64,000 bases of DNA from a virus (Duplodnaviria > Caudoviricetes): the IMG/VR virus record IMGVR_UViG_3300022752_000016; one strand, written 5' to 3'. Position numbers and translations under genes: made by a program. The notes under the pieces were generated by a model. The model was not told the origin of the DNA. It did no database searches and saw nothing but the letters and a program-made list of their open reading frames with translations. Position 1 is the first letter of the stretch. Each line of letters starts with the position of its first letter. This document shows positions 8,073 to 54,047 of this stretch, one piece after another.

Positions 8073-8090
8073 TATTAAGGAATAACAAAA

Positions 8091-10421: not shown

Positions 10422-10422
10422 T

Positions 10423-19306: not shown

Positions 19307-19314
19307 ATATAATT

Positions 19315-23647: not shown

Positions 23648-24454
23648 ATGAATGTTATAGCAGTTTATCCAGGTAGGTTTCATCCTTTCCATATAGGACA
23701 TGCTGATAGTTATAAACAACTAGCAGATAAGTTTGGGAAAGATAATACTTATTTGGCATTAAGTGCTAAACAAGAACAACCTAAAAGCCCTTTTAGCACA
23801 ATAGACCGTGCTAAAATGGCTATGGTGTTGGGTATTCCCAAAGAACAAATAATTAGTGTAACAAATCCATATTCCGCAAAAGAGTATATAGAAAGATTAC
23901 AAAGCAAAGGTGGTGATCCTGAAAACACAGCAATTGTTTTTGGGGTAAGCAAAAAAGATATGGAAGGAGTTCCTGAACTTAATATTCCACCTGATCCTAG
24001 GTTTGAATTTAAGCCTAAAAAGGATGGTAGTCCAAGTTACTTACAGCCTTACACTGATAAACTTGAACCAATGACCAAACATGGATATGTATATAGTACT
24101 GATGTAAAAGAGTTTCCTATTGCAGGAGAAATGATGCGTGATGCCAGTACTATTCGCAAAGCATATCAAAACGCTGATGATAAAAAAGAATTAGAAATTT
24201 TACAAGATTTATATGGTAAAAACGCACATCTTGTTAAATCAATTTTTGATACACATTTAAATTTAAACGAAAGTATTAAACGTTTTATCAATCGTATTAC
24301 TCCATTGGTACATAGTGCATTACCTGAACAAAAAATTAAATTATTAAATCTTTTAAAAGAAGCTAAAGCTATGCAAAAAGCCAAAACTTTAGAACATGAA
24401 TTGCATGAAACAAATACTATTATAGAAGATACGGATTATTTAGAAGAAAAATAA
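23648..24454 (+). CDS. HIGH-motif nucleotidyltransferase (cytidyltransferase-like)
   Basis: VYPGRFHPFHIGH. Confidence 0.75.
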   Translation: MNVIAVYPGRFHPFHIGHADSYKQLADKFGKDNTYLALSAKQEQPKSPFSTIDRAKMAMVLGIPKEQIISVTNPYSAKEYIERLQSKGGDPENTAIVFGVSKKDMEGVPELNIPPDPRFEFKPKKDGSPSYLQPYTDKLEPMTKHGYVYSTDVKEFPIAGEMMRDASTIRKAYQNADDKKELEILQDLYGKNAHLVKSIFDTHLNLNESIKRFINRITPLVHSALPEQKIKLLNLLKEAKAMQKAKTLEHELHETNTIIEDTDYLEEK

Positions 24455-31209: not shown

Positions 31210-31509
31210 TTAATTACTTTTTATTTCATCAAATGATTTAATAATTTCTAATTGAGAAGGATCATGTTTTTTATTATATGGAACAGGAAGTGATTGCCAT
31301 TCTTGCTCACTAATATCACAAGCTATAACCACCTGATACTTATGTCCATCACTTGTATATAGTTCAATAGTATCCAGTCCAATTACTGATTTACTTGTTT
31401 TTATTAATGCTTCACCTAAGGCTCTGAGTGCCTGTTTTTCTCCAACAATATATGCTCTACCATTTGGTTCTGCATGATTATGCATATGTAATCTTGATTT
31501 AACTTGCAT
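31210..31509 (-). CDS. Hypothetical protein
   Basis: 99-aa ORF coupled to the DnaE-like gene. Confidence 0.65.
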   Translation of the reverse strand: MQVKSRLHMHNHAEPNGRAYIVGEKQALRALGEALIKTSKSVIGLDTIELYTSDGHKYQVVIACDISEQEWQSLPVPYNKKHDPSQLEIIKSFDEIKSN

Positions 31510-33226
31510 TTAATAAATCTTTCAAACTTAGTCGTTTATGTTTCTTAACTGTAACATATTCTGTGTTGTTTTTGTAGCCTAATTTACCCACACCCCATAC
31601 TATTGGGTAATCATGTAAACTAACCGCTTTATCTAATATAACATCAATATAACGATTATTACCTGTTCCTAAGGTAACGAATGTAATATATTCTTTTGGT
31701 TTACTTTTAAATACACGATAATTGGCTACTAGTCCACAAAACTCTACCTCACCTGGTTTCCTCAACTCAGTACAAAAAGGTAAAAACTTTTTACTATGCC
31801 AATGACCCTGTGTCATTAATTCATTGATTTCATTGCCTTCGTACACACTTGTTATTGCCCCTGCCAATTTGGCCTCATGATGGTATACCCAACGGCTATA
31901 ACTACCTTGGCAATGTTTCAAAACAGCACGCCAAAACTTTTCAGGATTATGTGCTTTTTGATACGCAATTGCCCATATCAAACGTCCTAAATTAATCGCA
32001 TGTGCCCTACATAATCCAAAATTACTTAATTCTGTTAATGCATAAAAAACTTCTTCTTTGTTTTCATGGTTACCTATCAAATCCATAAACTCAAATATTT
32101 TTTCTTCATTACGTTTAGCAAAGGCACGACGCCACATATCTGCTTCATATTGGTTACAATCTAATAGTTTACTAATTAACATGATTGCATCATCTTCAAA
32201 CACAATAGTATTATCAAATGTGTCTTTGCTCCAATCACGGAAAAAACTGGCTTTGCGACGACCTTGTGTGGCAACTGGTCTAATTAATGCTGTAGCTAAT
32301 ACACAATCTTCACGTTTGGTTGGTTTTATAGCCCTAAATAATCTACGCATTGCAGGACTCTCTGCCTGTGTGACTCCCAAAACGTTACCGCTACGTAATA
32401 ACTCAGCAGTTTTTTCATCATATTCAGGATAGTCCAACAAGTTTTTTGTAGGGTCTATTTCATAGAGTTGAGATAGTCCTCGATTGGATAATATGTCAAT
32501 TTTAAAATGTTCTAAATCTTCAATTTCATATTTGTCTAATAGTATTTGGTTTTCTGCATTGATTAAACTTTTCGGGACAGCACGATCAAATATTAATATA
32601 CCACCACAATGTTTACTGATACAACGTTTTTTACCTAATAATTTATTAACCAAGCGTTTTGCTTCATCAGCAAATTCTGGTACAACTTTGTCTAAATCTA
32701 TATTTCTAGGTAATCTACCCTTCGCACCATATCGTTTTGCTGCCTCACGTATGGCACTTTTCTCTTTATATGTAACATAATTGCTTACCCGTGCTGATTG
32801 ACCTTTCCAATGATTAAAGATACGATTCATCACTGTTTCTTGTTGATAATGCGGGAAGTCTAAATCAATGTCTGGTAAATCATCACGTTTTGGGTTCATA
32901 AAACGTGCTAATGGTATTTTTTCTTTAATTGGATCAACATCACTAATACCAAGTAACCAACATAATAAACTACTTCCTGCACTACCACGAGTCATATGTG
33001 GTATATCTTTAGTTAATTCTAATATTTCTACTACACGTAAGAAGTGTTTTGCGAAACCTAATTTTGCTATGAGTTCTAGTTCTTCTTCTAACCTATTTTC
33101 GTATTCTATGTCGTTTGGTAAATTTCTTGTAAATTTCTTTATTAATATTTCTAGTTCTTTATATCTACTTTCCATATTTGTGCCTATTGTATGTGCCATA
33201 AGTTTTTTATTTATTTGGTAAAACAA
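31499..33226 (-). CDS. dnaE: DNA polymerase III alpha-like (DnaE) lacking the PHP domain; true start may be 33199 or 33175
   Basis: RGSAGSSLLCWLLG, PDIDLDF, HCGGILI, KIDIL, FGLCRAHA, C-terminal OB-like region. Confidence 0.85.
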   Translation of the reverse strand: MFYQINKKLMAHTIGTNMESRYKELEILIKKFTRNLPNDIEYENRLEEELELIAKLGFAKHFLRVVEILELTKDIPHMTRGSAGSSLLCWLLGISDVDPIKEKIPLARFMNPKRDDLPDIDLDFPHYQQETVMNRIFNHWKGQSARVSNYVTYKEKSAIREAAKRYGAKGRLPRNIDLDKVVPEFADEAKRLVNKLLGKKRCISKHCGGILIFDRAVPKSLINAENQILLDKYEIEDLEHFKIDILSNRGLSQLYEIDPTKNLLDYPEYDEKTAELLRSGNVLGVTQAESPAMRRLFRAIKPTKREDCVLATALIRPVATQGRRKASFFRDWSKDTFDNTIVFEDDAIMLISKLLDCNQYEADMWRRAFAKRNEEKIFEFMDLIGNHENKEEVFYALTELSNFGLCRAHAINLGRLIWAIAYQKAHNPEKFWRAVLKHCQGSYSRWVYHHEAKLAGAITSVYEGNEINELMTQGHWHSKKFLPFCTELRKPGEVEFCGLVANYRVFKSKPKEYITFVTLGTGNNRYIDVILDKAVSLHDYPIVWGVGKLGYKNNTEYVTVKKHKRLSLKDLLNAS

Positions 33227-34203: not shown

Positions 34204-34493
34204 ACAACGATATAATTTTAAACATATATTCTTGGGTAAAACAGGATTGGAAATCTAATCCTTTAAGATTTTTTATAGAATTATTGGCTTGGACTATAAG
34301 TATTGGTTGTGCCTTGATTATGGCACTAACTGTACCTAACCCTCCTCTTATGATATTATATCCATTGTGGATATTAGGATGTATACTGTATGCTTGGGCA
34401 TCATACTCAAGAAAATCATTTGGTATGTTGGGAAATTATTTGTTACTTACTTCAGTTGATATTATTGGATTAGCAAGGTTATTAATACAATGA
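34200..34493 (+). CDS. Small membrane protein
   Basis: Three hydrophobic segments. Confidence 0.7.
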   Translation: MNNDIILNIYSWVKQDWKSNPLRFFIELLAWTISIGCALIMALTVPNPPLMILYPLWILGCILYAWASYSRKSFGMLGNYLLLTSVDIIGLARLLIQ

Positions 34494-37198
34494 GTTATAT
34501 AGACGCCATACACGATAGAGATAGTGATAAAATTTATGTAGTAGAACGTACTACAGATGGCAAACGTACCTATAAAGAGTTTCCAGCTAATTATACATTT
34601 TACTATAGTGATCCTAAAGGTAAATATCGCAGCATATACGGAGATACTGTAGCCAAATTTAGCACAAGAAAACGTAGTGAGTTTGAAAAAGAACGACGGA
34701 TTCATGCAAATAAAAAATTATTTGAAAGTGATATTAACGTAGTTTATCGATGCCTTTCGGAAAACTATCTTAAAGTAGAAGCTCCAAAATTACACACTGT
34801 GTTTTTTGATATTGAAGTAGACTTTGATCCTGAAAAAGGATTTAGCCCAACAACTGATCCATTTAATCCTGTCACTGCAATTAGTTTGTATTTGGATTGG
34901 TTAGATCAGTTAGTTACCCTATGTATTCCACCAAAACATATGAGCCAAGAAACGGCCAATGATTTGACTAAACACATGAACAATACTATGCTATTTGATA
35001 ATGAAAAAGAAATGTTTGAAACATTCTTTCAACTTATTGAAGATGCAGATGTATTGACAGGTTGGAATAGTGAAGGATACGATATACCATATATGGTTAA
35101 TCGTGTAACACGTATAATGAGTAAGGATGATACCAGAAAATTCTGTTTACTTGGACAAACTCCTAAAATGCGTACATATGAACGATTTGGAAAAGATGAG
35201 CAAACTTATGATTTAGTTGGTCGTATTCATATGGATTATTTGCAGTTATATAAGAAGTATAACTATGAATCACGCCATAGTTATGCACTAGATTTTATTG
35301 GCGAAATGGAAGTAGGAGAAAACAAAACAAAATATGAAGGTACATTAGATCAATTGTACAACAAAGATTTTGTCACGTTTTTAGAATATAATCGCCAAGA
35401 TACAATGTTACTTGTTAAAATTCATAATAAACTTAAATTCTTAGATTTAGCCAATGCACTAGCGCATGAAAATACTGTATTGATTCCCACAGTAATGGGT
35501 AGTGTGGCTATGATTGAAATGGCTATTATGAATGAAGCACATGAACGTGGTTTAGTAGTACCTGATAAAAAACGAAAGGAACATAGTGATGAACAACAAG
35601 CAGCAGGTGCCTTTGTTGCTACGCCCAAAAGGGGTATACACGAATACGTCGGAGCGGTCGATATCAACAGTCTATACCCGTCAGCAATCCGCGCTCTTAA
35701 CATGGCGCCAGAAACCATTGTTGGACAAATCAGACAAACTCTTACAGACCAATACATGAAAGAAAAGGGCAATAAACTTGCCCGTGAAAAAAAATATTAT
35801 AAAGATGGTGATGATGATGTCACTGGAGCGATTCTATGGGAAGGATTATTTGGTAGTTTAGAATATACTGCTATAATGAATCGTGAACGTGGAACTATGC
35901 TTACACTAGATTATGAAGATGGACGAAGTGTAGAAATGAGTGCCTGTGAAATATGGAAACTTGTATTTGATAGTCATAAACCATATATTCTCAGCGCAAA
36001 TGGTACTATCTTTAGACATGACCAAGAAGGTGTGATCCCAGGATTATTAACACGTTGGTACAGTGATCGTAAAGTTATGCAGAAAAAATTAAAAGAAAGC
36101 ACAACTGATGAAGATAAAGAATACTGGGATAAAAGACAACTTGTTCGTAAGATTTTACTAAACTCAGCATATGGTGCATTGTTAAATGAACATTGTCGTT
36201 TTTATGATAAACGTATTGGTCAAAGTGTTACATTAACAGGTCGGCAAATCGTTAAGCATATGATGAGTACCATTAATGAAGTTATTACTGGTGAATACAA
36301 TCACGAAGGTTCAGCAATTGTATATGGTGATACTGACAGTTGCTATTTCAGTGCATACCCAATTCTAAAATCACAAATAGAAAATACGGAAGTAGACTGG
36401 AATAAAGACCTATGTATTCAATTATACGACAATATTGCTGAACAAGCGAATCAATCGTTTCCTAGTTTTATGGAACGTGCATTTCATTGTCCAAGAAAAA
36501 ATGGAGAAATTATTGTAGCTGGTCGTGAATTGATTGGTGATCGTAGCATTTTTATTACTAAAAAACGTTATGCAATTAATATTTACGATAAAGAAGGTAA
36601 GCGTAAAGACGTAAATGGGAAACAAGGTGATATCAAAGCAATGGGACTTGACTTAAAACGTGCAGATACTCCGAAATTCATACAAGAATTTTTAATGCAT
36701 ATTTTAGAAATGGTACTAGCTGGTAAACAAAAAGAAGATATCATAGAAAAAATTAAAACGTTTAAAAATATATTATCTGAGCGTGATAGTTGGTTGAAGG
36801 GTACACCTAAATCAGTAAACAAGCTTACATACTATGGTGAATTAGAAAAAAACAGTAAAACAGGCAAAGTAAACATGCCTGGACATGTTCGTGCTGCACT
36901 TAACTACAACTATCTACGTAAGGCTAATAGTGATAACTACAGCATGAAAATCGTAGATGGGATGAAAGTTGTGGTATGCAAATTAAAAAGTAATCCATTA
37001 GGGTTTACAAGTATTGCATATCCCACAGATGAGTTACGTTTGCCTAAATGGTTTTGTGAATTACCATTTGATGATATTGAGATGGAACGTGGTTTAGTAG
37101 ATGAAAAGATTGATAACCTATTAGGTGTGTTAAATTGGGACTTAAGACGTAGTACAGATACTACAACAACATTTGATGAGTTGTTTACATTTGGTTAA
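34490..37198 (+). CDS. Family B DNA polymerase (T4 gp43-like)
   Basis: Exo I FFDIE, DINSLYPS, KILLNSAYG, YGDTDS. Confidence 0.97.
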   Translation: MSYIDAIHDRDSDKIYVVERTTDGKRTYKEFPANYTFYYSDPKGKYRSIYGDTVAKFSTRKRSEFEKERRIHANKKLFESDINVVYRCLSENYLKVEAPKLHTVFFDIEVDFDPEKGFSPTTDPFNPVTAISLYLDWLDQLVTLCIPPKHMSQETANDLTKHMNNTMLFDNEKEMFETFFQLIEDADVLTGWNSEGYDIPYMVNRVTRIMSKDDTRKFCLLGQTPKMRTYERFGKDEQTYDLVGRIHMDYLQLYKKYNYESRHSYALDFIGEMEVGENKTKYEGTLDQLYNKDFVTFLEYNRQDTMLLVKIHNKLKFLDLANALAHENTVLIPTVMGSVAMIEMAIMNEAHERGLVVPDKKRKEHSDEQQAAGAFVATPKRGIHEYVGAVDINSLYPSAIRALNMAPETIVGQIRQTLTDQYMKEKGNKLAREKKYYKDGDDDVTGAILWEGLFGSLEYTAIMNRERGTMLTLDYEDGRSVEMSACEIWKLVFDSHKPYILSANGTIFRHDQEGVIPGLLTRWYSDRKVMQKKLKESTTDEDKEYWDKRQLVRKILLNSAYGALLNEHCRFYDKRIGQSVTLTGRQIVKHMMSTINEVITGEYNHEGSAIVYGDTDSCYFSAYPILKSQIENTEVDWNKDLCIQLYDNIAEQANQSFPSFMERAFHCPRKNGEIIVAGRELIGDRSIFITKKRYAINIYDKEGKRKDVNGKQGDIKAMGLDLKRADTPKFIQEFLMHILEMVLAGKQKEDIIEKIKTFKNILSERDSWLKGTPKSVNKLTYYGELEKNSKTGKVNMPGHVRAALNYNYLRKANSDNYSMKIVDGMKVVVCKLKSNPLGFTSIAYPTDELRLPKWFCELPFDDIEMERGLVDEKIDNLLGVLNWDLRRSTDTTTTFDELFTFG

Positions 37199-40768: not shown

Positions 40769-40972
40769 ATGGCAAAAGTAAACTTTAAAAATAGTTCAAC
40801 ATATAACAAAATCTTTGAAGATTTAGAGAAGTATTTAGAATTTTGTAGAGAGTATGGGTACACATTTAATGAATCAGACCTATATACTAATAGGAGCAAT
40901 TCATATCGTAATTACCAAAAACATATTACAGGTAAACCAGTAAAAAATATGTGGGAAACAGATGGAAAATAA
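40769..40972 (+). CDS. Hypothetical protein
   Basis: 67-aa ORF with AAGGA RBS. Confidence 0.65.
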   Translation: MAKVNFKNSSTYNKIFEDLEKYLEFCREYGYTFNESDLYTNRSNSYRNYQKHITGKPVKNMWETDGK

Positions 40973-41750
40973 TCAATATACTGTTGTATTAGTTACAGGT
41001 GGGTTTGACCCTATCCATAGTGGTCATATCGCTTACTTTAAAGCAGCAAAAGAATTAGGGCATCAATTAGTTGTTGGCCTAAATAGTGATGAATGGTTAG
41101 CTAGGAAAAAAGGTAGACCATTTATGCCATTGGCAGAACGTGCTGCTATTATTAGTGAATTACGTGTTGTAGATGGTTATATAACTTTTGATGATAGCGA
41201 TAATTCTGCTAAAAATGCAATTAAATATTGTCTAGAAAATACATTTAATAATGAGCGTATTATATTCGCTAACGGTGGGGATAGAACACAAGAAAATATT
41301 CCTGAAATGGAGATTGTAGATCCCAGACTAGAATTTTGGTTTAATGTTGGTGGCGATAACAAAATGAATTCTAGTAGTTGGATATTACAAGAATGGAAGG
41401 CTCCCAAAACAAATAGACAATGGGGTTATTATCGTGTATTACATGAAGATGGTCCTAATGTAAAACTTAAAGAACTAACAGTAGAACCAGGTAAAAGTTT
41501 AAGTATGCAGAAGCATAATAAACGTAGTGAGTTTTGGTTCGTTAGTAAAGGTGAGGCTACTGTTAATACATTAAACTCAAAAAGTGATGTAGAACAATTA
41601 GGTGTTTATAATAAACATGAACATTTATTTGTACCAAACGAACGTTGGCATCAATTATGTAATAATGGATCAGAACCATTAAAACTTATTGAAATCCAAT
41701 ATGGTGAACAATGTATTGAAGATGATATTGAAAGAAAAACACAAACATGA
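40962..41750 (+). CDS. Cytidylyltransferase (RfaE-II-like) fused to a mannose-6-phosphate-isomerase-type cupin
   Basis: GGFDPIHSGH, GLNSDEWLARKKGRP; RQWGYY...VEPGKSLSMQKHNKRSEFW. Confidence 0.85.
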   Translation: MENNQYTVVLVTGGFDPIHSGHIAYFKAAKELGHQLVVGLNSDEWLARKKGRPFMPLAERAAIISELRVVDGYITFDDSDNSAKNAIKYCLENTFNNERIIFANGGDRTQENIPEMEIVDPRLEFWFNVGGDNKMNSSSWILQEWKAPKTNRQWGYYRVLHEDGPNVKLKELTVEPGKSLSMQKHNKRSEFWFVSKGEATVNTLNSKSDVEQLGVYNKHEHLFVPNERWHQLCNNGSEPLKLIEIQYGEQCIEDDIERKTQT

Positions 41751-41914
41751 TTGATAAAGTATTTTGGGGTTCTATCATAGTGTTTTTTTGTATTGCTATT
41801 GTTTTAGTAATACAAGGTATACACGATCTAGATGAGTATATTAGTAACTGTAAAGGGCTAGTTGTTAAAACTCCAGATGGCTGGGTTTGTTCTAATGCAC
41901 AAAAGGTTAATTAA
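41747..41914 (+). CDS. Small membrane protein (55 aa, not in ORF track)
   Basis: MIDKVFWGSIIVFFCIAIVLVIQG...; coupled at both ends. Confidence 0.6.
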   Translation: MIDKVFWGSIIVFFCIAIVLVIQGIHDLDEYISNCKGLVVKTPDGWVCSNAQKVN

Positions 41915-43089
41915 TGCGTAAACTATATTATATGGGATTGGAGCCTTATAAAGCACGTTATACATTACAATTACAAGAATGGAATCGTAGTGTATTTGAA
42001 CGCAGGCGTATAAACTATCATATGGTTGAAGGAAAAACCTTAGGCAATGATAAAGCTATAGTAATAGGACAAGTCTTAGATGCACATGGTAGGACATACT
42101 TTGGAATGAGCCAACTTATGAACTTAGTTCATTTAATGAAATTAGGACAGGTTACCTCTAATGATGTAATTTATTTTGAGGATATGTTTCAGCCAGGCAT
42201 AGAAAGTTTACCCTATATTTTAAATCAAATAGAAAAAAGACATAAGCCTAAGATATTTGTACGTTGTTTGGCACAAAGTATTGATCCAGATGACTTTGTA
42301 CATGTATGGGGCATGAGTAAATGGATGGGTCATTATGAAAAAATGGTAGATAGTTTTGTAGATGGTGTACTAGCAAGTAATGAAGAAATGGTAGCACATA
42401 TGAAGATTGCTGGTTGGACTAGTCCTATCTATAATATATCTGGATTGGCATTCGGTAAAGTAGAAGTTCAAAATAGAGTAAATAGTATTAAGCCCTTTGA
42501 TGAAAGGGCGATGCGTGTAGTTTTTTCAGCGAGATGGGATCAGGAAAAACAGCCTGACTTTTACATGGACCTGATTGAAGCTTGGCACAATATTGAAGGA
42601 CTTCCAAAGGTTGAATTTGCAGTGTGTAGTGGAAGTAAGCTACGGTCAAATAATCAAAGTTATATGGAACGCACATACAAATTAGTTGATGAAGGTAAAC
42701 TTAAGTTATATGAAGATTTAGAAAAAAACGATTATTATAATATTCTTAATGATAGTCGTTGTGTGTTTAACTGTGCGTTACAAGATTGGGTCAGTAATAC
42801 AGTAAGTGAGGCTGATGCATTAGGATGTAATGTTTTATACCCTGCATATCGTAGTTTTCCTGAAACCTTCTCCAACGACGCCTCTAGACTATATGTTCCA
42901 TGGTCTATCAAAGATGCTATACTTAAATTAATTCCATTACTAGAAAATCCACATAAAGATATTGGAAAAATTAGTGATTATACTGATAAAACAATAGATA
43001 GAATTTGTGATATACTTGAAGGTAATGGTAAACAATATTTACGTATGGAAGTAGATTATCGCAAACATAATAGGGAATATAAATTTTAA
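41914..43089 (+). CDS. Glycosyltransferase (GT-B/GT4-like)
   Basis: FSARWDQEKQP, WVSNTVSEADALGCNVLYP. Confidence 0.75.
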   Translation: MRKLYYMGLEPYKARYTLQLQEWNRSVFERRRINYHMVEGKTLGNDKAIVIGQVLDAHGRTYFGMSQLMNLVHLMKLGQVTSNDVIYFEDMFQPGIESLPYILNQIEKRHKPKIFVRCLAQSIDPDDFVHVWGMSKWMGHYEKMVDSFVDGVLASNEEMVAHMKIAGWTSPIYNISGLAFGKVEVQNRVNSIKPFDERAMRVVFSARWDQEKQPDFYMDLIEAWHNIEGLPKVEFAVCSGSKLRSNNQSYMERTYKLVDEGKLKLYEDLEKNDYYNILNDSRCVFNCALQDWVSNTVSEADALGCNVLYPAYRSFPETFSNDASRLYVPWSIKDAILKLIPLLENPHKDIGKISDYTDKTIDRICDILEGNGKQYLRMEVDYRKHNREYKF

Positions 43090-43167: not shown

Positions 43168-43848
43168 ATGAGTTATAATAAAACTAAAACAGACCCTGAA
43201 TTGGGTAAAAGAGTAAATGAGTACTTAGTAAAAATGGGCGTACAAACTCCCGCAGCGAAATCAAGACACGATAGAAAAACTCAAATTGAATTAATAGAGC
43301 AAAATTTTACTGCTATTATGAACATCTTAGGATTGGATCTACATGATGATAGTTTAGCTGAAACTCCAAAACGTGTAGCAAAAATGTATGTAAATGAAAT
43401 ATTTTGGGGTTTAGACTATGAAGCTTTTCCTAAATGTACCACAGTAAATAATAAAATGAAGTATAATGAAATGGTGGTAGAAAGAAATGTATCAGTTCAG
43501 AGCAATTGTGAGCATCATTTTGTGGTTATTGACGGTCTTGCTACTGTGGCATATGTACCTAAGGATAGAGTATTGGGTCTTAGCAAAATCAACAGAATTG
43601 TGGAGTATTTTAGTAAACGCCCTCAAATTCAAGAACGTTTAACAGAACAAATTTTTCATACATTACAATATATTCTTGATACAGAAGATGTTGCTGTTAT
43701 GATTGATGCACAACATTACTGTGTAAAAAGCAGAGGTGTTGAGGATACAGGTAGTAGTACTGTAACAAGTCGTTTGGGTGGTGGATTTAAAAATGATGTT
43801 GCTGTGCGTAATGAATTTTACAGTATTGCAAGGAGTTCATCTAAATGA
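43168..43848 (+). CDS. folE: GTP cyclohydrolase I
   Basis: ETPKRVAKM, SNCEHH, GLSKINR, RPQIQERLT, HYCVKSRG. Confidence 0.96.
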   Translation: MSYNKTKTDPELGKRVNEYLVKMGVQTPAAKSRHDRKTQIELIEQNFTAIMNILGLDLHDDSLAETPKRVAKMYVNEIFWGLDYEAFPKCTTVNNKMKYNEMVVERNVSVQSNCEHHFVVIDGLATVAYVPKDRVLGLSKINRIVEYFSKRPQIQERLTEQIFHTLQYILDTEDVAVMIDAQHYCVKSRGVEDTGSSTVTSRLGGGFKNDVAVRNEFYSIARSSSK

Positions 43849-44012
43849 GTTGTAATATCTGTAAAAAAGAGTATAGTCCCAATTGTGATTATAATCAGGG
43901 TAGATGCCCACATCATAGGCCTTTAATAACAAATCCTTATCCATTATGGTTAATAATTTTATTTGTAGCAGTTGTACTATTTTATAGTACTGGGAATAAT
44001 TATGGGTTTTAA
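43845..44012 (+). CDS. Small Cys-rich membrane protein (55 aa, not in ORF track)
   Basis: MSCNICKKEYSPNCDYNQGRCPHH plus a hydrophobic helix; coupled start. Confidence 0.5.
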   Translation: MSCNICKKEYSPNCDYNQGRCPHHRPLITNPYPLWLIILFVAVVLFYSTGNNYGF

Positions 44013-44235
44013 AAAACCTGAATTGCAAACTGCAACAGACATTATTTTTCAAGCTATATATGAAACTCATAGTAAATACAACGATGGTTTTACCCAGTTT
44101 GAAATTAAAAAAGATTTATATAAGCTTAAGTGGATAATGGATGATTATTTTAAAAAAGCAGATAAGTTTCAAGGGGAAGATGAATGGGTTGAAAAGATAT
44201 TACAACAAAGAGTATGGGAGTTACTTAAAAAATGA
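44002..44235 (+). CDS. Hypothetical protein
   Basis: ATG 44002. Confidence 0.6.
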   Translation: MGFKKPELQTATDIIFQAIYETHSKYNDGFTQFEIKKDLYKLKWIMDDYFKKADKFQGEDEWVEKILQQRVWELLKK

Positions 44236-45071
44236 CAGAGAAAATATTAATAATGGGACTACCAGGTTCGGGTAAAACATATTTTGCAGAACGTTTAAAA
44301 AAATATTTAGAGATAAATGGAGAAAAGTCTTTATCCAAAATTGATTCGGATCGCCCTTATCCAATGCTTAATGTAAAAGTAGATTGGTTTAACGCAGATG
44401 ATATACGTAAAAAATTTAATGATTGGGACTTTAGTAAAGAAGGTAGAATCCGTCAAAGTTTGCGTATGGCAGAATTTGCAATTCGTTGTAATGGGGAATA
44501 TGTAATTTGTGATTTTGTTGCTCCTTTACCTGAAATGAGAAATAATTTTAAAGCTGATTGGACCATATGGATGGATACAATTGATAAAGGTCGGTATAAA
44601 GATACGAACAAAGCATTTGTGCCCCCTGACATTTATGATTTTCGAATTAATGAACAAAATTGTGAACGTTGGGTACCTTATGTTGGTGAAATGATTATTA
44701 GGAAAAAGCGTAGACCAATCTTTGATTGGCGTAAAGAAACAGTGCAAATGTTAGGTCGTTGGCAACCATGGCATCTTGGGCATCGTGCTTTGTTTGAACG
44801 CTTGCTAAGTAAGACAGGACAAGTTATAATACAAATACGTGATGTACAAGGATGGCAAAATAGTAACCCGTTTAGTGTTGAAGAAGTTAAAAATTATATA
44901 AAACGTGATTTAGATCCATTATATCAAGGTCAATATGAGATTATGTTAGTTCCAAATATTGTACACATTGGTTGGGGCCGGGGAGTAGGATATACAAGTG
45001 GAGAAGAACTTTTTGATGAAGAAATAACAAAAATAAGTGCAACAGAAATAAGGAAACAACTTGGTTTATAG
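44232..45071 (+). CDS. Adenylylsulfate-kinase-like domain fused to a HxGH nucleotidyltransferase domain
   Basis: GLPGSGKT, NADDIR, FSKEGRIRQ, CDFVAP; LGRWQPWHLGH, NPF. Confidence 0.75.
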   Translation: MTEKILIMGLPGSGKTYFAERLKKYLEINGEKSLSKIDSDRPYPMLNVKVDWFNADDIRKKFNDWDFSKEGRIRQSLRMAEFAIRCNGEYVICDFVAPLPEMRNNFKADWTIWMDTIDKGRYKDTNKAFVPPDIYDFRINEQNCERWVPYVGEMIIRKKRRPIFDWRKETVQMLGRWQPWHLGHRALFERLLSKTGQVIIQIRDVQGWQNSNPFSVEEVKNYIKRDLDPLYQGQYEIMLVPNIVHIGWGRGVGYTSGEELFDEEITKISATEIRKQLGL

Positions 45072-45072
45072 T

Positions 45073-45747
45073 ATGTGGGAAAATATAAAATTACCATTGG
45101 TAATACTTTCTAGTCCAAGATCTGGTTCTACTGTTTTACTAGACACTATTCGTAATTATTTAAATGACAATAATGTAAATTTTACAGACATAGGCAGTGA
45201 ACCAATTACACATGAAGATCGGTCTTTTGAACGTTATGAAAAATTAAACCACAATTTAACAACAAATAATTTCATTTGTAAACTTCATGTTTTTCAACTT
45301 AAAACAATTTATCCAATGTTTTTTTTTGATAATATACTTCAAGGAAAATACTTTTTAATAAGGATTAGGAGAAAAAATATTGCAGAACAATTAGTAAGTC
45401 TTTACATAAGTCATGTGTATGGAGAAAAAGAAATTTTCCAAAATTCAAAAGAATCAAATAAAAAATACATTGAAAATAAAAAAATTCCAATTGATAAATT
45501 TATTATGGAACAAGTAATAATACGTGGCATGCACCATATACATCTTTTAGAAAATTTTAATTGTAAATTTGATTTAGATTTATGGTACGAGGATATAATA
45601 TTCAACTCAAAGAAGTATTACAAACCAAAACCTCCTAGTAATTATAAAGAATTAGTTGATAGAGTTAGTAACATTGTACAAGATAAAACTTTTGACTCGT
45701 TAATAAAAACTATAAAAGTTCATCCATTGACCCTTAAATCGACATAA
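45073..45747 (+). CDS. Sulfotransferase (Stf0-like)
   Basis: 5'-PSB loop ILSSPRSGST; RRKNIAEQLVS; WYED. Confidence 0.75.
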   Translation: MWENIKLPLVILSSPRSGSTVLLDTIRNYLNDNNVNFTDIGSEPITHEDRSFERYEKLNHNLTTNNFICKLHVFQLKTIYPMFFFDNILQGKYFLIRIRRKNIAEQLVSLYISHVYGEKEIFQNSKESNKKYIENKKIPIDKFIMEQVIIRGMHHIHLLENFNCKFDLDLWYEDIIFNSKKYYKPKPPSNYKELVDRVSNIVQDKTFDSLIKTIKVHPLTLKST

Positions 45748-45750
45748 AAA

Positions 45751-46425
45751 ATGTTTACCAATTTAAAATTACCTATTGTTATACTTTCTAGTCCAAGATC
45801 TGGTTCTAATGTTCTTTATGATACTATTTGTAATTATTTAAGTGATAATAAAATACACTATGTTGGTACAGGAGTTGAACCTTTATTATTTGATAATTAT
45901 AATGATACAAAAAGTTTAAAAAAGTTTGATGAAATAATAGCAACGAACAATTTTGTAACAAAAATTCATGCTATACATTTAAAAAAGTTATACCCTAATT
46001 ATTTTGTACAAAATATTTTGCAAAAAAAATATACCATTGTTAGGATAAGACGAAGAAATATAATTGAACAATTAATTAGTCTATACATTTGCACACTTAT
46101 TGATATTATCAATAAAGGAGATGAACTTATTTGGTCAAACACTAAAAAAAGTAATAGATTGATTGAAGATAAAAAAATTCCCATTTATGAAGATGTTTTA
46201 AAAAAGGTTATAAATTATGGAATATTAGCAATAACATACTGTGAAAATTTTAATTACAATTTTGATTTAGACTTATATTATGAAGATTTATCGTTTAATT
46301 CAAAAAAACACTTTAAACCAACAAAAAAACCTAGTAACTATGAAGAATTGCACACAATTTTTAGCGATCATTTAGCAAAAATTGATTTTAAACAGAACAA
46401 CGATATATTAAATACCCTTTTATGA
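45751..46425 (+). CDS. Sulfotransferase (Stf0-like), tandem paralog
   Basis: ILSSPRSGSN; RRRNIIEQLIS; YYED. Confidence 0.75.
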   Translation: MFTNLKLPIVILSSPRSGSNVLYDTICNYLSDNKIHYVGTGVEPLLFDNYNDTKSLKKFDEIIATNNFVTKIHAIHLKKLYPNYFVQNILQKKYTIVRIRRRNIIEQLISLYICTLIDIINKGDELIWSNTKKSNRLIEDKKIPIYEDVLKKVINYGILAITYCENFNYNFDLDLYYEDLSFNSKKHFKPTKKPSNYEELHTIFSDHLAKIDFKQNNDILNTLL

Positions 46426-46622
46426 TGAATTCAAAAGATAATAGTATTATACTACGAATGTCGGAACTAATGAAACCTATTGATAAACAAATAATGATGA
46501 CGAATGATGATAAAGAATTACTTATGCTGGCGTGTGCTATGTTACAACGTGTAACAGAAATATTTGATAACACATTAACAGTAACTGGAAGAAAAAAAAT
46601 GTTTAGCGATTTGATTAAATAG
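46422..46622 (+). CDS. Hypothetical protein
   Basis: 66-aa coupled ORF. Confidence 0.65.
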   Translation: MMNSKDNSIILRMSELMKPIDKQIMMTNDDKELLMLACAMLQRVTEIFDNTLTVTGRKKMFSDLIK

Positions 46623-46701: not shown

Positions 46702-47172
46702 GTGGCAAAATTTATTTCAACAAAAACATATAACCAAATCGGTCCAGTGGCATATCGTCAATGGCGTGCGGATAGTCATTGTAATTTGATACATGGATAT
46801 GCATTGAGTTTTCATTTTGAATTTGAAAGTGAAACGCTTGATGCTAGAAACTGGGTAGTAGATTTTGGTAGTCTTAAACCTTTAAAAGGATTATTGGAAG
46901 AATGGTTCGATCATACGCTACTAGTAGCAGAAGATGATCCTATGAAAAATGAATTATCTAGATTGGGAGAATTGGGACTAGCAAAAATTACAATGGTAGA
47001 ACGAACAGGGTGTGAAGGTATTGCTGATTGGTTATACGAATACATTAATACTTGTTGGTTAAAAGATTATGGGTATGATGAAAGAGTGTGGTGTTGTAAA
47101 GTGGAAGTAAGAGAGACTGATGCTAACATGGCAATGCGTGTTGGAAGTAGGTCAGATAATGAATTCGTTTAA
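46702..47172 (+). CDS. queD: 6-carboxy-5,6,7,8-tetrahydropterin synthase
   Basis: SHCNLIHGY, WVVDFGSLK, FDHTLL, VEVRETDAN; GTG start with AAAGGAGG RBS. Confidence 0.85.
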   Translation: MAKFISTKTYNQIGPVAYRQWRADSHCNLIHGYALSFHFEFESETLDARNWVVDFGSLKPLKGLLEEWFDHTLLVAEDDPMKNELSRLGELGLAKITMVERTGCEGIADWLYEYINTCWLKDYGYDERVWCCKVEVRETDANMAMRVGSRSDNEFV

Positions 47173-47183
47173 AAAGGAAACAA

Positions 47184-47555
47184 ATGAATAAAGTTTTATC
47201 AGACCAAAAGCAGTTTATGACAGCTTGTGGTCAAACAGTAGATACATATAATTTAGAGCAATTCAATTTGTATAAATCATTAATTGGAGAAGAAGTAGGT
47301 GAACTCATTCATGCTTGTCAACTAAATGACAGAGTAGAACAATTAGATGCACTTATTGATATTTTAGTTGTTACGGCAGGAGCAATACATAGTTTAGGGG
47401 TTGATGGTGAAGCTGCTTGGAACGAAGTTATGCGAACAAATTTTGCAAAAGTTGACCCAGTTACTGGAAAAGTACGCCGTCGTGAAGATGGTAAAATTCT
47501 TAAACCTGATGGTTGGACACCACCACAACTACAATCATTTGTAAAAAATATTTAA
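47184..47555 (+). CDS. MazG-like/all-alpha NTP pyrophosphohydrolase
   Basis: LIGEEVGEL...LDALIDILVV...NFAK...REDGKILKP. Confidence 0.85.
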   Translation: MNKVLSDQKQFMTACGQTVDTYNLEQFNLYKSLIGEEVGELIHACQLNDRVEQLDALIDILVVTAGAIHSLGVDGEAAWNEVMRTNFAKVDPVTGKVRRREDGKILKPDGWTPPQLQSFVKNI

Positions 47556-47557
47556 TT

Positions 47558-48397
47558 ATGTCACAGTTAAAAGTAAGCGAACTATTCTATAGTATCCAAG
47601 GTGAGGGCCGATATATGGGTGTACCAAGTGTGTTCCTTCGTGTGTTTGGATGTAACTTTACATGTGGTGGATTTGGTATGCCACGAGGACAAACTAGTAA
47701 TCAACGTAATGAAATTAAGGTAGAATTATTTAAAGATTATAAAGAACTACCATTGGTATCTACTGGGTGTGATAGTTATGCAAGTTGGGATCCTAGGTTT
47801 AAACATCTTAGCCCAGTTCTTGATACAAATACAATCGTAACTAGTATACTAGATTTATTACCTACTGGGTATTGGCAAGGAGAACATTTAGTTATTACAG
47901 GTGGCGAACCATTGTTAGGTTGGCAACGTAATTATCCTGATTTACTAGGACATGATTTTATGGAACATTTAAGTGATATTACGTTTGAAACTAACGGTAC
48001 GCAAAAATTAACAAATGTTTTTTATGATTATCTTAAGGATTGGTCAAAAAGTAAAAACGGTGAAGTAACATTTAGTGTAAGTGCAAAGTTACCAAACAGC
48101 GGTGAAAAGTGGGATGAAGCAATCAATCCAGATATAGTATGTCAATATCAAGAAGTTGGCTATACATATTTAAAATTTGTAGTAGCAACTGAAGATGATA
48201 TTGAAGATGCCGAAAAAGCAGACAGCGAATTTAGAAATGCAGGATTTGTTGGGCCCACTTATATTATGCCTGTTGGTGGTGTTGATAGTGTATATAATTT
48301 AAACGCAAAGAATGTAGCATTAGCAGCTATGAAACGAGGTTGGCGTTATAGTGATAGACTGCAAGTACTACTATTTAAAAACGAATGGGGAACATAA
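47558..48397 (+). CDS. queE: 7-carboxy-7-deazaguanine synthase (radical SAM)
   Basis: ELFYSIQGEG, FLRVFGCNFTC...GCDS, VITGGEPLL, FETNGT, RLQV. Confidence 0.88.
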   Translation: MSQLKVSELFYSIQGEGRYMGVPSVFLRVFGCNFTCGGFGMPRGQTSNQRNEIKVELFKDYKELPLVSTGCDSYASWDPRFKHLSPVLDTNTIVTSILDLLPTGYWQGEHLVITGGEPLLGWQRNYPDLLGHDFMEHLSDITFETNGTQKLTNVFYDYLKDWSKSKNGEVTFSVSAKLPNSGEKWDEAINPDIVCQYQEVGYTYLKFVVATEDDIEDAEKADSEFRNAGFVGPTYIMPVGGVDSVYNLNAKNVALAAMKRGWRYSDRLQVLLFKNEWGT

Positions 48398-48579: not shown

Positions 48580-48767
48580 TGTTAGTAGGAACTGACTATA
48601 AATTTTTATTATTTCCCAAACGCTGTAGTTTAACAAACAAGTTATTATGGCTTTGTTATGCATATGAGCATATTCATTTATACACAGGACTTGGGGAACC
48701 TTTATTTGAATACAAATATTATGATAAGAAGCATTATTTGGTAAATAAGTTAAAGGGTGTATTGTGA
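48579..48767 (+). CDS. Hypothetical protein
   Basis: Coupled ORF. Confidence 0.55.
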   Translation: MLVGTDYKFLLFPKRCSLTNKLLWLCYAYEHIHLYTGLGEPLFEYKYYDKKHYLVNKLKGVL

Positions 48768-50092
48768 GAACTTACGACAAACGGATTGGTTTCATTGTTA
48801 GTAGTCAAACACTAATCCCACATGGTGGTATAGGACAATTTGCAAAAAGTTTTTGTGAGTTAATGAACGAACATAATATTAAAGTTGATATTATTACAGA
48901 TAAAGAACCCAATGATAAAGACTTTGTAAAATCACTTAATACTAAAGTTATAACGCCGTCAGTGTCATTACCTTATACGAATCATAGTAATATTTTTATG
49001 TATGGAGATACATATTGCTATGAGCGTATGGCTAACTTTCGTAATGCTATTATACAGGCATTAGAAAATAATTTATATGACGCATTCATATGCAACACAT
49101 ATGAAAGTGTTCAAGTTGCAAGTACAATTGGTTTAGAGGATGTAATTAAAATTATAGCCTACACTCATTTGGAAAGTCAAATATTTAAGGATACTAAAAA
49201 TCCCTTTTTAGCATCTACCAATCAAATGATGCGTATGCAACTTAAGTTGAATGGTATATACATAGGAACACAAAGTAAGTTCAATCAGTTAACCATTGGA
49301 GATAGTGCTTATCATTTACCTATTCCTATTACAGAAAAGAAATTACTTAATAAGTTTGATAATGCTAGGGAGGGTGTTTTGTTTATTGGACGCTGGGAAG
49401 AAGGCAAGAATCCTGAACTGTTTATTGAATTGATAGAGCAAACAAAACTCCCAGCAAAAGTAATGACAAGCCCAAATGGTGTTAAAAAGTTTGAAGATAG
49501 GTTAAAAAGGATTAATGCAAAGTATGAAATACGTGCTAGCATTATTGGACAGGAGAAAGTAGATTTTATTACAAGTGCTAGAATAGCTTTTAATCCTAGT
49601 ATTGTTGAAAGTTATGGTATGGCTTTTTACGAACAAATGATACAAATGCCTACTGTAGTATTAGAAAATCAAAGATGGACAAATAATTTTGATTCAAACT
49701 ATTTCTATACGTGTAATAAAAAGAACATGGCAGAAATAGTCATGGGGTTATACAAGAATGTGCCAACATCTGATGTTTGGTATAAAAATGGTATTATTGA
49801 AAAGTATCGTAGGATAGAAGATCAGGTGTTTCATAAATGGAACAATTGCTTTAGTGATTTTAAATGTAGGGAATCAAACTCAACCACAGCTAAAATATGT
49901 AATGAAACTACAGTTAAACTATCAGATTATATTAGTAGCCTAAAAAGGAATTTAATTTGTATAGACGATATCCGTAGCGTATTAACTAATAAACATAAGT
50001 TTCGTATAATTTACACAGACAATGATACATATCTAACGAAAGACCCTAGTTTTGAACCAACAGATACAGAGGATTTATTTGAAGGATTATGA
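48764..50092 (+). CDS. Glycosyltransferase (GT-B/GT4-like)
   Basis: HGGIGQF, LFIGRWEEGKNP, FNPSIVESYGMAFYE. Confidence 0.8.
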   Translation: MRTYDKRIGFIVSSQTLIPHGGIGQFAKSFCELMNEHNIKVDIITDKEPNDKDFVKSLNTKVITPSVSLPYTNHSNIFMYGDTYCYERMANFRNAIIQALENNLYDAFICNTYESVQVASTIGLEDVIKIIAYTHLESQIFKDTKNPFLASTNQMMRMQLKLNGIYIGTQSKFNQLTIGDSAYHLPIPITEKKLLNKFDNAREGVLFIGRWEEGKNPELFIELIEQTKLPAKVMTSPNGVKKFEDRLKRINAKYEIRASIIGQEKVDFITSARIAFNPSIVESYGMAFYEQMIQMPTVVLENQRWTNNFDSNYFYTCNKKNMAEIVMGLYKNVPTSDVWYKNGIIEKYRRIEDQVFHKWNNCFSDFKCRESNSTTAKICNETTVKLSDYISSLKRNLICIDDIRSVLTNKHKFRIIYTDNDTYLTKDPSFEPTDTEDLFEGL

Positions 50093-50913
50093 AGAAAATA
50101 CTAATAACAGGAAATAGTGGTTATATTGGATCGCATCTTACCAAGCTACTAAGCAAAGATTATGAAGTACATGGATTAGATAAAAAAGATTTGATTGTAC
50201 CAGTAAAAGAATTTTACAAATTAGATATTAACCGAAAATTTGTATTGCCTATAGAATTTGATTGTGTAGTGCATTTAGCAGCATTGGTTAATGTGGGCGA
50301 AAGTGAAACCAATTCAATAAATTATTACATCACCAATGTAAATGGTACAATGAATGTATTAGCAAACATTAAAACTAAAAACTTTATATTTTCTAGTACA
50401 GGAGCAGCGGAATTTTGTAAAAGTGCATATGGTGTAACAAAACGATCAGCAGAATATATTATAAAAGAATATTGCACACTTCATTCACAAACTCCATATA
50501 CTATTTTTAGATTTTATAATGTCATCGGTAATGATGGAATTAACCCAACAAATCCAGACGGATTATTTTATAATTTAATTAAAGCTAAAGATACAGGTAC
50601 TTTTACTATATATGGCAAAGATTATGAAACACCTGATGGCACTTGTTTACGTGACTATGTACATGTTAATGAAATTTGTCATGCAATTAAAACCGCAATA
50701 GAAAAACCAAGTAATAGTATTGAATGTCTTGGACATGGTGTAGGATACAGCGTTAAAGAAATTGTAAATAAATTTCAAATTGTAAATCAGTGTGATTTTG
50801 ATATTAAATATGGACTAAGACGATTAGGTGATTTACCTGTCAGCGTATTAGAAGATGTGTCGCCATATATGGAAAATTTATATACTATTGATGAATTACT
50901 TAAAGTTACATAA
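50089..50913 (+). CDS. NAD-dependent epimerase/dehydratase (GalE-like)
   Basis: ITGNSGYIGSH, HLAA, YGVTK, RFYNV, DGTCLRDYVHV. Confidence 0.9.
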   Translation: MKKILITGNSGYIGSHLTKLLSKDYEVHGLDKKDLIVPVKEFYKLDINRKFVLPIEFDCVVHLAALVNVGESETNSINYYITNVNGTMNVLANIKTKNFIFSSTGAAEFCKSAYGVTKRSAEYIIKEYCTLHSQTPYTIFRFYNVIGNDGINPTNPDGLFYNLIKAKDTGTFTIYGKDYETPDGTCLRDYVHVNEICHAIKTAIEKPSNSIECLGHGVGYSVKEIVNKFQIVNQCDFDIKYGLRRLGDLPVSVLEDVSPYMENLYTIDELLKVT

Positions 50914-53024: not shown

Positions 53025-54047
53025 ATGTATACTAATCAAAATATCAAACGTCTTGGTTTCGCTTGTAAATGGGTCGAAGTCAATAAGAAAGGTGAGATTG
53101 CAAGTGTAGAAGGGCTTAACACAGGTGGTACCACACATGCTTGGGCAAAACGTCAAATCCGTGAAAAAGCAGAAGAAAAAGTATTGGATGTAGCTAAACG
53201 CAATATTGTTAATACCCATAACCTTATTAAAAAGGTTGCTACATTACCCCCTGCTTTACGCATGGTTCGTCTTACAAGCGACATGCTCAGTTTTTATACC
53301 ATGGATGATTGGAAACCGTTTTGGCAATCACAGACTGTAAGAACATTGTTAGAAAAATGGTTTGCCCCATTAGGTGAAACTGCAAGACAAAATGATGTAC
53401 GGGTAAGCTTTCATCCCGATCAATTTGTAGTATTGGCAAGTGATCGCCCTGAAGTAGTAAATAAAAGTATAGAGGAGTTTGAATATCATGTGGATATGGC
53501 CCGTTGGATGGGGTACACAAAAAAATTTCAGGACATTAAAATCAACATCCACATCTCGGGTAGAGCCGGTGTCGAAGGTTTTAGACAAGCCTACAAGAGA
53601 CTGTCTGACTCAGCCCGCAGTAGTATTACAATTGAAAACGAAGAAATAAGTTATGGACTCGATGATTGCCTTCAGCTTAGTGATATTGTTCCTATTGTTC
53701 TTGATATTCATCACGCTTGGATTAACGAAGGATTATATATCCAGCCAAACGATGATCGTGTCAAAAGGGTTATTGATAGCTGGCGGGGTATTCGCCCTAC
53801 TTGCCATTTTTCTGTCAGTAGAGAAGATATCTTGGTTAACCACTGCCTTCATACACTTCCCGATTATAAGGTTCTCTTAGAATCAGGACATAATAAACAG
53901 AAACTACGGGCACACAGTGATTATTATTGGAATGACGCTGTTAACCGTTGGGCTTTACAGTTTAACGAAAATTTTGATATAATGTGCGAAAGCAAGGCTA
54001 AAAATCTTGCTAGTATGAAACTTTACGATACATATATAAATGTTTGA
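53025..54047 (+). CDS. uvsE: UV damage endonuclease
   Basis: RLGFACK, RLTSD, SFHPDQF, TIENEE, VLDIHH, RAHSDY, CESKAKNLA. Confidence 0.9.
   Translation: MYTNQNIKRLGFACKWVEVNKKGEIASVEGLNTGGTTHAWAKRQIREKAEEKVLDVAKRNIVNTHNLIKKVATLPPALRMVRLTSDMLSFYTMDDWKPFWQSQTVRTLLEKWFAPLGETARQNDVRVSFHPDQFVVLASDRPEVVNKSIEEFEYHVDMARWMGYTKKFQDIKINIHISGRAGVEGFRQAYKRLSDSARSSITIENEEISYGLDDCLQLSDIVPIVLDIHHAWINEGLYIQPNDDRVKRVIDSWRGIRPTCHFSVSREDILVNHCLHTLPDYKVLLESGHNKQKLRAHSDYYWNDAVNRWALQFNENFDIMCESKAKNLASMKLYDTYINV

Follow-up and report, generated by a model that had tools for sequence, protein, structure and literature searches.

A phage gene module predicted to encode a miniature PAPS synthase and two PAPS-dependent sulfotransferases

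In a 64,000-nt stretch of DNA from a tailed phage (IMG/VR record IMGVR_UViG_3300022752_000016; hereafter the window), three adjacent genes at 44232-46425 probably form a self-contained sulfation module. The first gene would encode a miniature synthase of 3'-phosphoadenosine 5'-phosphosulfate (PAPS), in which an adenosine 5'-phosphosulfate (APS) kinase-like domain is fused to an HxGH nucleotidyltransferase (NT) domain. The other two would encode PAPS-using sulfotransferases, for which a sugar-containing acceptor is most likely. From gene linkage and phyletic pattern, we infer that the NT domain is most likely a minimal and unrecognised kind of ATP sulfurylase. The window is AT-rich (GC about 30%) and is part of a 205-kb phage contig.

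The module lies within a block of five packed open reading frames (ORFs) on the plus strand (43972-46622), whose spacings are -4, +1, +3 and -4 nt; the block thus reads as one operon. The fusion gene (44232-45071, stop codon TAG) encodes 279 aa. Its APS-kinase domain (aa 1-160; 44232-44711) is assigned by Pfam, by a profile comparison to the PDB and by fold, and its NT domain (aa 165-279; 44724-45071) by matches to the CTP_transf_like and nicotinamide mononucleotide adenylyltransferase (NMNAT) models. Next come two genes for putative Stf0/NodH-like sulfotransferases of 224 aa each, all on the same strand. Paralogue 1 (45073-45747) is assigned by family profile and motifs, and paralogue 2 (45751-46425) by motifs, an AlphaFold2 (AF2) model and a fold match. 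A first-pass annotation of the window had described an APS-kinase-like P-loop domain fused to a WHLGH nucleotidyltransferase and followed by two PRSG(S/T) sulfotransferases, with the whole placed between folE and queD. This description holds in its main parts: the fusion has the P-loop GLPGSGKT and the motif GRWQPWHLGH, the N-terminal loops of the two paralogues read SSPRSGST in one and SSPRSGSN in the other, both PAPS-binding motifs and an Stf0 fold are recovered, and folE and queD flank the genes. The coordinates needed one correction, as the first sulfotransferase most likely starts at the ATG at 45073, 2 bases past the TAG of the fusion, rather than at the TTG at 45061.

We first consider the kinase half. 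Residues 1-160 match the Pfam family APS_kinase (PF01583; EC 2.7.1.25) with 29.8 bits against a cut-off of 21.1, whereas the score for the NCBIfam equivalog TIGR00455 is far under its cut-off (19.8 vs 138.7 bits). Judged by these scores, the domain is thus a divergent member of the APS kinase family. A family profile was built from 46 diverse full-length fusion relatives with 32-83% identity (alignment A1); in the PDB, its 17 best matches are without exception APS kinases, with E 2e-15 to 7e-12. The AF2 model of the fusion has a mean predicted local distance difference test (pLDDT) of 91.9. In fold comparisons with Foldseek and VIA, it matches APS kinases at Z 16-18, and the next family is gluconate kinase at 14.8; the VIA matches include 4rfv (Z 17.9, root-mean-square deviation (rmsd) 1.8 over 129 aa) and 2yvu (Z 17.8). 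In the P-loop (aa 9-16), G9, G14, K15 and T16 are conserved in the 46 family members. Furthermore, D56 and R59, which lie in the stretch N54-A-D56-D-I-R59, as well as F67 and R72 align in HMMER with D480, R483, F492 and R497 of Mycobacterium tuberculosis CysC. R59 and F67 do not vary among the family members, and conservation is at least 90% at both D56 and R72. In the mycobacterial enzyme, D480 binds the ribose 2'-OH of APS, R483 and R497 hold the phosphosulfate, and F492 stacks on the adenine (PMC4373884). A 22-aa insert (aa 28-49) is phage-specific and has lower model confidence. Taken together, the domain reads as a trimmed but real APS kinase in both sequence and model, and its predicted activity, the phosphorylation of the 3'-OH of APS to give PAPS, is strongly supported.

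The NT half contains the motifs GRWQPWHLGH, NPF, WGRGVGY and ISATEIR, and the CTP_transf_like and NMNAT models match residues 170-279 weakly. H181-L-G-H184 is invariant in the family and compares with H425-N-G-H428 of human PAPSS1; Sat-type ATP sulfurylases belong to the HxGH superfamily, and this motif is required in PAPSS1. R250, in the (Y/W)GR(D/G)VGY loop of the NT family, is also invariant. HMMER aligns the HxGH and ISxTxIR motifs of the family to the motifs of the Aquifex Sat domain, although only as motif-level local alignments. By sequence, the ATP-binding N-terminal part is nearest to archaeal NMNAT (1f9a, E 1e-11), and the domain shares GRxQPxHxGH, NPF and the ATP-binding half of the fold with NadM-type NMNAT (MJ0541, PDB 1f9a; TIGR01527). 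However, the TIGR01527 score is 27.8 vs 181.2 bits and covers only profile positions 4-73 of 167. The NT domain has 115 aa compared to 167-181 in NMNATs; about 50 residues are lacking in the part for the second substrate, and the short (Y/W)GR(D/G)VGY loop stands in place of the substrate-binding segment. In structure, the NT domain is closest to phosphopantetheine adenylyltransferase (PPAT; 4nah, Z 10.3 over 109 aa; VIA with the full-length fusion model). Stand-alone viral homologues of the NT domain exist. The substrate of the domain cannot be named by homology alone. As the sequence comparisons place it outside the Sat family (PF01747), our claim is that it would work like an ATP sulfurylase, not that it is a Sat. 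Apparent fusions of the NT or kinase domain to chorismate synthase, DHQ synthase or DUF4118 were set aside as probably chimeric or miscalled; they are on contigs of 1.6-2.2 kb, one with about 1x coverage.

The two sulfotransferase paralogues are 50% identical to each other, and neither matches a Pfam family at E < 0.1. Several of their relatives at 28-31% identity have PF09037 (Stf0), PF13469 or both, and some relatives bear the label NodH-like. The sulfotransferase family is small, with 26 clusters of relatives. In an alignment of 26 relatives (A2), the 5'-phosphosulfate-binding loop SSPRSGS (aa 13-19 of paralogue 2) has S13, S14, R16 and G18 invariant, and in the 3'-phosphate-binding motif R101, Q107 and S110 are all invariant; K71 and H73 of paralogue 2 are invariant as well. 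The A2 profile finds three chains only in the PDB, all of them sulfotransferases: the 5'-phosphosulfate-binding loop aligns with the loops of Stf0 and of the CurM and OLS sulfotransferases, and Stf0 aligns at both the 5'-phosphosulfate and the 3'-phosphate motif, the latter against Stf0 residues 152-183. In VIA, the AF2 model of paralogue 2 (pLDDT 88.6) matches Stf0 (1tex) best, at Z 10.5 and an rmsd of 3.8 over 165 aa; the cytosolic sulfotransferases SULT7A1, SULT1B1 and SULT3A1 come next (Z 8.6-9.2). Foldseek against the PDB gives weak and mixed matches for this model, which include sulfotransferases and P-loop kinases. On the basis of motifs and model, both proteins are predicted to be divergent PAPS-type sulfotransferases. 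Their 3'-phosphate motif suggests that they need PAPS and not APS.

The fusion is very common, with more than 7,700 proteins retrieved, of which the top 120 have 73-95% identity, and with 307 relatives in IMG/VR. It is common in aquatic T4-like phages. In 82 phage loci with the fusion, genes were called and grouped into clusters, and sulfotransferases were detected by Pfam on cluster representatives, by hidden Markov models and by hhalign. A sulfotransferase lies within 8 kb of the fusion in 43 of these loci and in 22 of the 32 loci where both flanks are complete; in 10 loci, the distance is at most 100 nt. At least five sulfotransferase sequence families take part (clusters 2, 15, 81, 95 and 134). 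The sulfotransferase partner changes and the link to the fusion persists. Neighbour clusters 39, 43, 54, 114, 191 and others gave no sulfotransferase signal. Other recurrent neighbours are glycosyltransferases (GT2, GT25 and GT9), methyltransferases, UDP-galactopyranose mutase, a DegT aminotransferase, a carbamoyltransferase and epimerases, and genes for RCC1-repeat giant proteins, the T4 neck, the tail, gp15 and the small terminase also recur near the fusion.

In the reciprocal comparison, which was anchored on the sulfotransferase in 80 phage loci, the fusion lies within 10 kb in 13 loci, a separate adjacent kinase and NT are present in three, a kinase is found at the locus edge in one, and the remaining 63 have none of these. 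When five large sulfotransferase-bearing phage genomes were searched, the fusion profile was unmatched in four (three rated 100% complete), and the fifth has a weak match to the kinase domain. The fusion, when present, tends to sit with a sulfotransferase. The pairing of kinase/NT and sulfotransferase is more than chance, as dozens of independent loci in phages and bacteria have it. Sat and CysD were not found in the fusion-bearing phage contigs searched for them (five per family, six in all), one of which is 340 kb long and judged 98% complete.

Kinase and NT also occur together as separate genes. In one phage locus (L122), a tail-fibre-like gene precedes genes for a 111-aa NT, a mini-kinase of 107 aa and a sulfotransferase, in this order. 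In another (L159), the gene for a canonical CysC (193 aa, full lid) comes first and that for a stand-alone 153-aa NT begins 2 nt later; next are genes for a DUF2061-like membrane protein, for a glycosyltransferase and for a sulfotransferase. A pairing of kinase and NT in any architecture is expected if the NT acts in the same pathway. The operon of L159 is at 7645-10807 of a 262-kb phage or provirus contig, where a gene for a 1,608-aa cysteine-rich repeat protein adjoins it on the opposite strand.

Among cultured phages, the full fusion (34-37% identity) is present in the Sano-like siphophages of Xylella, Xanthomonas and Stenotrophomonas. Two genes upstream of it, and before a NADAR-domain gene, these phages encode a 192-aa protein that matches Sulfotransfer_4 with 26.2 bits. 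By hhalign, the Sano ORF (P0297) scores 5.6% against the sulfotransferase family of the window and 45.6% against cluster 2; we call it a sulfotransferase because its Pfam score is above the cut-off of 22.8 bits. The trio of Sulfotransfer_4-like, NADAR and fusion genes is conserved in the Stenotrophomonas phage vB_SmaS_Bhz60 (L001, 5978-7741) and in Xylella phage Bacata (L002). In the annotation of the Sano-like phages, the Sulfotransfer_4-like protein is hypothetical and the fusion is a 'kinase'. In Ralstonia jumbo phages, only the kinase half is present. A megablast search of the module region and a tblastn search with sulfotransferase 2 gave no match in cultured phages.

The fusion is also present in bacteria. 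In a sample of 401 alphaproteobacterial genomes, we found it in seven genomes and the split pair in one, and a phylum-wide search of 401 Pseudomonadota genomes yielded no additional fusion. All eight alphaproteobacterial carriers have a Sulfotransfer_3 gene, which in four of them lies within 10 kb of the fusion or pair, and Sat is present in none. For instance, the genome G147 is a single closed contig of 2.06 Mb in which the gap between fusion and sulfotransferase is 12 nt, and no Sat, CysD or AprA was found in it. A second sample consists of 61 genomes from the family of genome G344 (alphaproteobacteria of 0.6-1.6 Mb; G783-G840). This family gives the best-scoring bacterial matches to the fusion profile, and the window fusion is 49% identical to one of its fusions. 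The fusion or pair is present in 33 of the 61 genomes. Sat occurs in four genomes, all of them carriers (4/33), whereas CysD was found in none of the 33 carriers compared to four of the 28 non-carriers, so that CysD and the kinase/NT pair are mutually exclusive in this sample. Neither Sat nor CysD was found in 29 of the 33 carriers. We thus favour the NT domain as the APS-forming partner because it is fused or adjacent to the kinase in either order, because it co-occurs with sulfotransferases, and because there are carriers in which no known ATP sulfurylase was found.

According to this reading, the C-terminal HxGH domain would adenylylate sulfate with ATP, which yields APS and pyrophosphate, and the N-terminal kinase domain would phosphorylate the 3'-OH of APS to give PAPS. 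The tandem Stf0/NodH-like sulfotransferases would then use PAPS to sulfate one or two acceptor positions. The acceptor would most likely be a sugar-containing molecule made late in infection, e.g. a glycan of the virion or the cell envelope. A sugar-containing acceptor is favoured because glycosyltransferase and sugar-nucleotide genes surround the module in the window and in related phages; the contexts of two sulfotransferase relatives (P0126 and P0135) are phage-like and carry no information on the acceptor. With the fusion, the phage would be able to make its own PAPS where the host provides little APS or PAPS, or none at all.

Several observations weigh against a miniature PAPS synthase. 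The activities of all three proteins are predicted from sequence and models. In the kinase domain, the first Asp of the DGD motif (D87 in human PAPSS1) is replaced by Asn54 (family consensus N-A-D), and a D87/D89 double mutant of PAPSS1 lost its kinase activity. The lid is shortened to RY-DTN--F--P compared to the canonical KGLY...FTG...PYExP; in a manual alignment of this shortened lid, Y122 and F129 are spaced like the canonical F and Y. The fusion has no match to PF01747 (Sat) at E < 0.1, and the closest sequence relatives of the NT domain are NMNATs rather than ATP sulfurylases. The sulfate/APS-binding motifs of Sat-type ATP sulfurylase, QxRNP and GRDHAG, are not present as such in the domain; GRWQPWH and WGRGVGY (consensus YGRDVGY) are partly similar. 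Unassisted ATP sulfurylation is thermodynamically unfavourable and needs the removal of pyrophosphate and a fast consumption of APS. CysD is present in four of the eight alphaproteobacterial carriers, which thus do not depend on the NT as their only source of APS, and the bacterial gene counts come from genomes for many of which completeness is not reported. G344 itself has AprA, which could make APS from sulfite; even alongside AprA, the NT would be in line with an enzyme that converts ATP plus sulfate to APS and back. Finally, about a third of the fusion loci with full flanks have no recognisable sulfotransferase, and many complete phage genomes have sulfotransferases but lack the fusion; these sulfotransferases can thus rely on PAPS from the host.

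Some of these points fit an explanation that we regard as possible, though unlikely, in which the phage supplies only the kinase. Host APS would be converted to PAPS, and the NT would serve in regulation or oligomerisation, or would adenylylate another small phosphate or anion. The CysD genes of the bacterial carriers, the nearness of the NT to NMNATs without sulfurylase-specific sulfate-binding motifs, and the lone kinase half of the Ralstonia jumbo phages are in line with it. However, the NT accompanies the kinase in either order and even next to a canonical CysC, and in the 29 G344-family carriers and the closed genome G147, where neither Sat nor CysD was found, the kinase would be without substrate. 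The conservation of all catalytic NT motifs (HxGH, ISxTxIR and R250) furthermore argues against a dead scaffold. An improbable alternative is that the gene serves assimilatory sulfate reduction, where a phage 'cysC' would boost the cysteine synthesis of the host via PAPS reduction and not sulfation. Phage 'cysC' has been interpreted in this way in two surveys, which describe it as an abundant and expressed auxiliary gene of lake and marine phages, enriched in large phage genomes (PMC10914622; bioRxiv 10.1101/2021.01.05.425418). In the window, however, the fusion directly precedes two sulfotransferases and no protein of the PAPS-reductase family turned up among the ORFs scanned; moreover, most full-flank loci have a sulfotransferase, and CysD was not found in most of the G344-family genomes.

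The remaining alternatives concern other substrates or another acceptor. One is that the module, together with FolE, QueD, QueE and the glycosyltransferases, sulfates a sugar or a deazaguanine-derived group on the phage DNA; such a DNA modification would belong to a hitherto undescribed chemical class. The interleaving of the module with folE, queD, queE and two glycosyltransferase-like genes in the window suggests such a role, and DNA was among the targets named in the first-pass annotation. We nevertheless consider it very improbable: the folE/queD setting is found in three of the 82 loci only (the window and its close relatives L005 and L053), whereas other phages place the module next to neck, tail, giant repeat-protein and glycan genes, and neither QueC nor DpdA/tRNA-guanine transglycosylase turned up among the window ORFs scanned, where FolE, QueD and QueE are present. 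The deazaguanine gene product could be 7-carboxy-7-deazaguanine (CDG) or a queuosine supply for the host. Of the earlier proposal that a sugar on DNA, the virion or the host surface is sulfated, the DNA part is not supported, and a glycan or another non-DNA acceptor is more likely. Slightly less credible still is a role in NAD salvage, with a nicotinamide-riboside-type kinase and an NMN adenylyltransferase that resemble NadR with swapped domain order. Although the archaeal/NadM NMNAT models match the NT best and a NADAR gene is directly upstream of the fusion in Sano-like phages, the matches of the kinase half are specifically to APS kinases, and it keeps the two phosphosulfate-binding arginines. 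The NMNAT match stays at 27.8 vs 181 bits with the substrate-binding part shortened as described, and the genomic setting speaks of sulfation rather than NAD, with linkage to sulfotransferases also in Sano-like phages. We give hardly any credence to an analogue of CoA synthase, in which a PPAT-like NT would make dephospho-CoA and the APS-kinase-like domain would phosphorylate its 3'-OH. PPAT is indeed the best structural match of the NT and the 3'-OH chemistry is the same as in APS kinase; however, no sequence match to PPAT or dephospho-CoA kinase exceeds those to APS kinase and NMNAT, the APS-specific residues are kept, and the neighbourhoods point to sulfation. For the miniature PAPS synthase itself, which had been proposed as a minimal 279-aa enzyme, the APS kinase is borne out by sequence, fold and residues, while the APS-forming role of the NT is favoured by comparative genomics and remains the inferred part.

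The predicted fusion resembles the bifunctional PAPS synthases (metazoan PAPSS1/2 and the Sat-CysC proteins of Aquifex, fungi and Thiobacillus), which likewise combine an APS kinase and an HxGH-superfamily adenylyltransferase in one chain. Human PAPSS1 has the same domain order with an N-terminal kinase, and the kinase halves are clearly homologous. In contrast to these enzymes, the second domain of the fusion has only 115 aa and lacks the PUA-like domain, the PF01747 match, QxRNP and GRDHAG, and its trimmed kinase has a shortened lid and begins the DGD motif with Asn. PAPS supply is encoded beside a carbohydrate-type sulfotransferase in NodPQ with NodH, RaxPQ with RaxST, and mycobacterial CysDNC with Stf0. 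The module follows the same logic, and the window sulfotransferases match Stf0 best and have NodH-like relatives. Whereas these bacterial loci use the GTPase-coupled sulfurylase CysD/CysN, one 279-aa protein would do both steps in the phage. The 'cysC' of the surveys cited above probably belongs to the same family as the fusion, with one example on a 210-kb lake phage compared to about 205 kb here; the available text of both mentions neither the fused NT nor 'sulfotransferase' (0 occurrences). Marine phages also carry sulfotransferases, whose function was stated as unclear in a paper on OM43 phages (PMC10580990). Genes of Sulfotransfer_3 type occur in aquatic phages, and we found at least 592 relatives in IMG/VR; those of the window differ in their link to a phage-encoded PAPS source. 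Our search for literature on an APS kinase fused to a cytidylyltransferase-like domain found no paper. PAPS synthesis next to a sulfotransferase is known; in the module, the first enzyme would be non-canonical.

If the NT forms APS, it would add to Sat and CysDN a third type of ATP sulfurylase, and a far smaller one. This would explain how many streamlined aquatic bacteria and phages without a recognisable sulfurylase make PAPS. Phage 'cysC' would then be reread as a gene for sulfated products during infection instead of a boost to cysteine synthesis, and the phage sulfotransferases would gain a donor supply and a testable context. The Sano-like phages of Stenotrophomonas and Xanthomonas, with the fusion beside a sulfotransferase, offer a culturable system for phage sulfation.

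The surroundings of the module in the window, all on the plus strand, are as follows. Upstream is FolE (GTP cyclohydrolase I, 43168-43848; GTP_cyclohydroI, E 1e-61) and downstream is QueD (46702-47172; PTPS, E 4e-16), which is the first of a group with a MazG/PRA-PH-like pyrophosphohydrolase and the radical SAM protein QueE (46702-48397). Three small ORFs also sit within the folE-queD interval. Two of them border the module: an 87-aa ORF without a PHROG match (43972-44235), whose stop overlaps the start of the fusion by 4 nt, and a 66-aa ORF (46422-46622), with a 4-nt overlap at the stop of sulfotransferase 2. The family of the 87-aa ORF (cluster 80) adjoins the fusion in the closest relatives as well, upstream in L005 and downstream in L053. 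Further upstream, at 40962-43089, are a 262-aa fusion of a cytidylyltransferase-like domain and a mannose-6-phosphate-isomerase-type cupin, a 55-aa membrane ORF and a 391-aa glycosyltransferase-like protein; the NT-cupin gene (cluster 27) is a recurrent neighbour of the sulfation fusion in other phages. Further downstream, 48764-50913 encodes a 442-aa glycosyltransferase of GT1-like type and a 274-aa NAD-dependent epimerase/dehydratase; the family of the latter (cluster 6) recurs close to the fusion in other phages. A further cytidylyltransferase-like protein of 268 aa is encoded at 23648-24454 (+), and the phage encodes at least three HxGH nucleotidyltransferase domains.

Lastly, we note other genes of the window. 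A DUF6445 protein is encoded at 21573-22223 (+); in phage L003 such a gene (6831-7469) is directly after the fusion gene, and DUF6445 may recur in the variable island to which the fusion belongs. At 18521-21573 (+), the gene for a DnaJ-like co-chaperone (261 aa) lies immediately ahead of one for a full ClpB-like two-ring AAA+ chaperone (752 aa). An ORF of more than 1,614 aa (3-4847, +) extends past the start of the window. This region has a GC content of 0.46 compared to about 0.31 in the rest of the window, an AT skew of 0.33-0.45 and a GC skew of up to 0.20; together with long ORFs that are also open on the other strand, this deviating composition points to a giant protein of repetitive, low-complexity sequence. 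A membrane protein of the Bax-inhibitor-1 (BI-1/YccA) family is encoded at 13171-13863 (+; Pfam Bax1-I, E 4e-52). The phage has a DNA polymerase III alpha homologue at 31499-33226 (-), which at 575 aa is fragment-sized with the NTPase and finger domains only, and near it a family-B DNA polymerase at 34490-37198 (+). A gene for a UvdE-type UV damage endonuclease is located at 53025-54047 (+).

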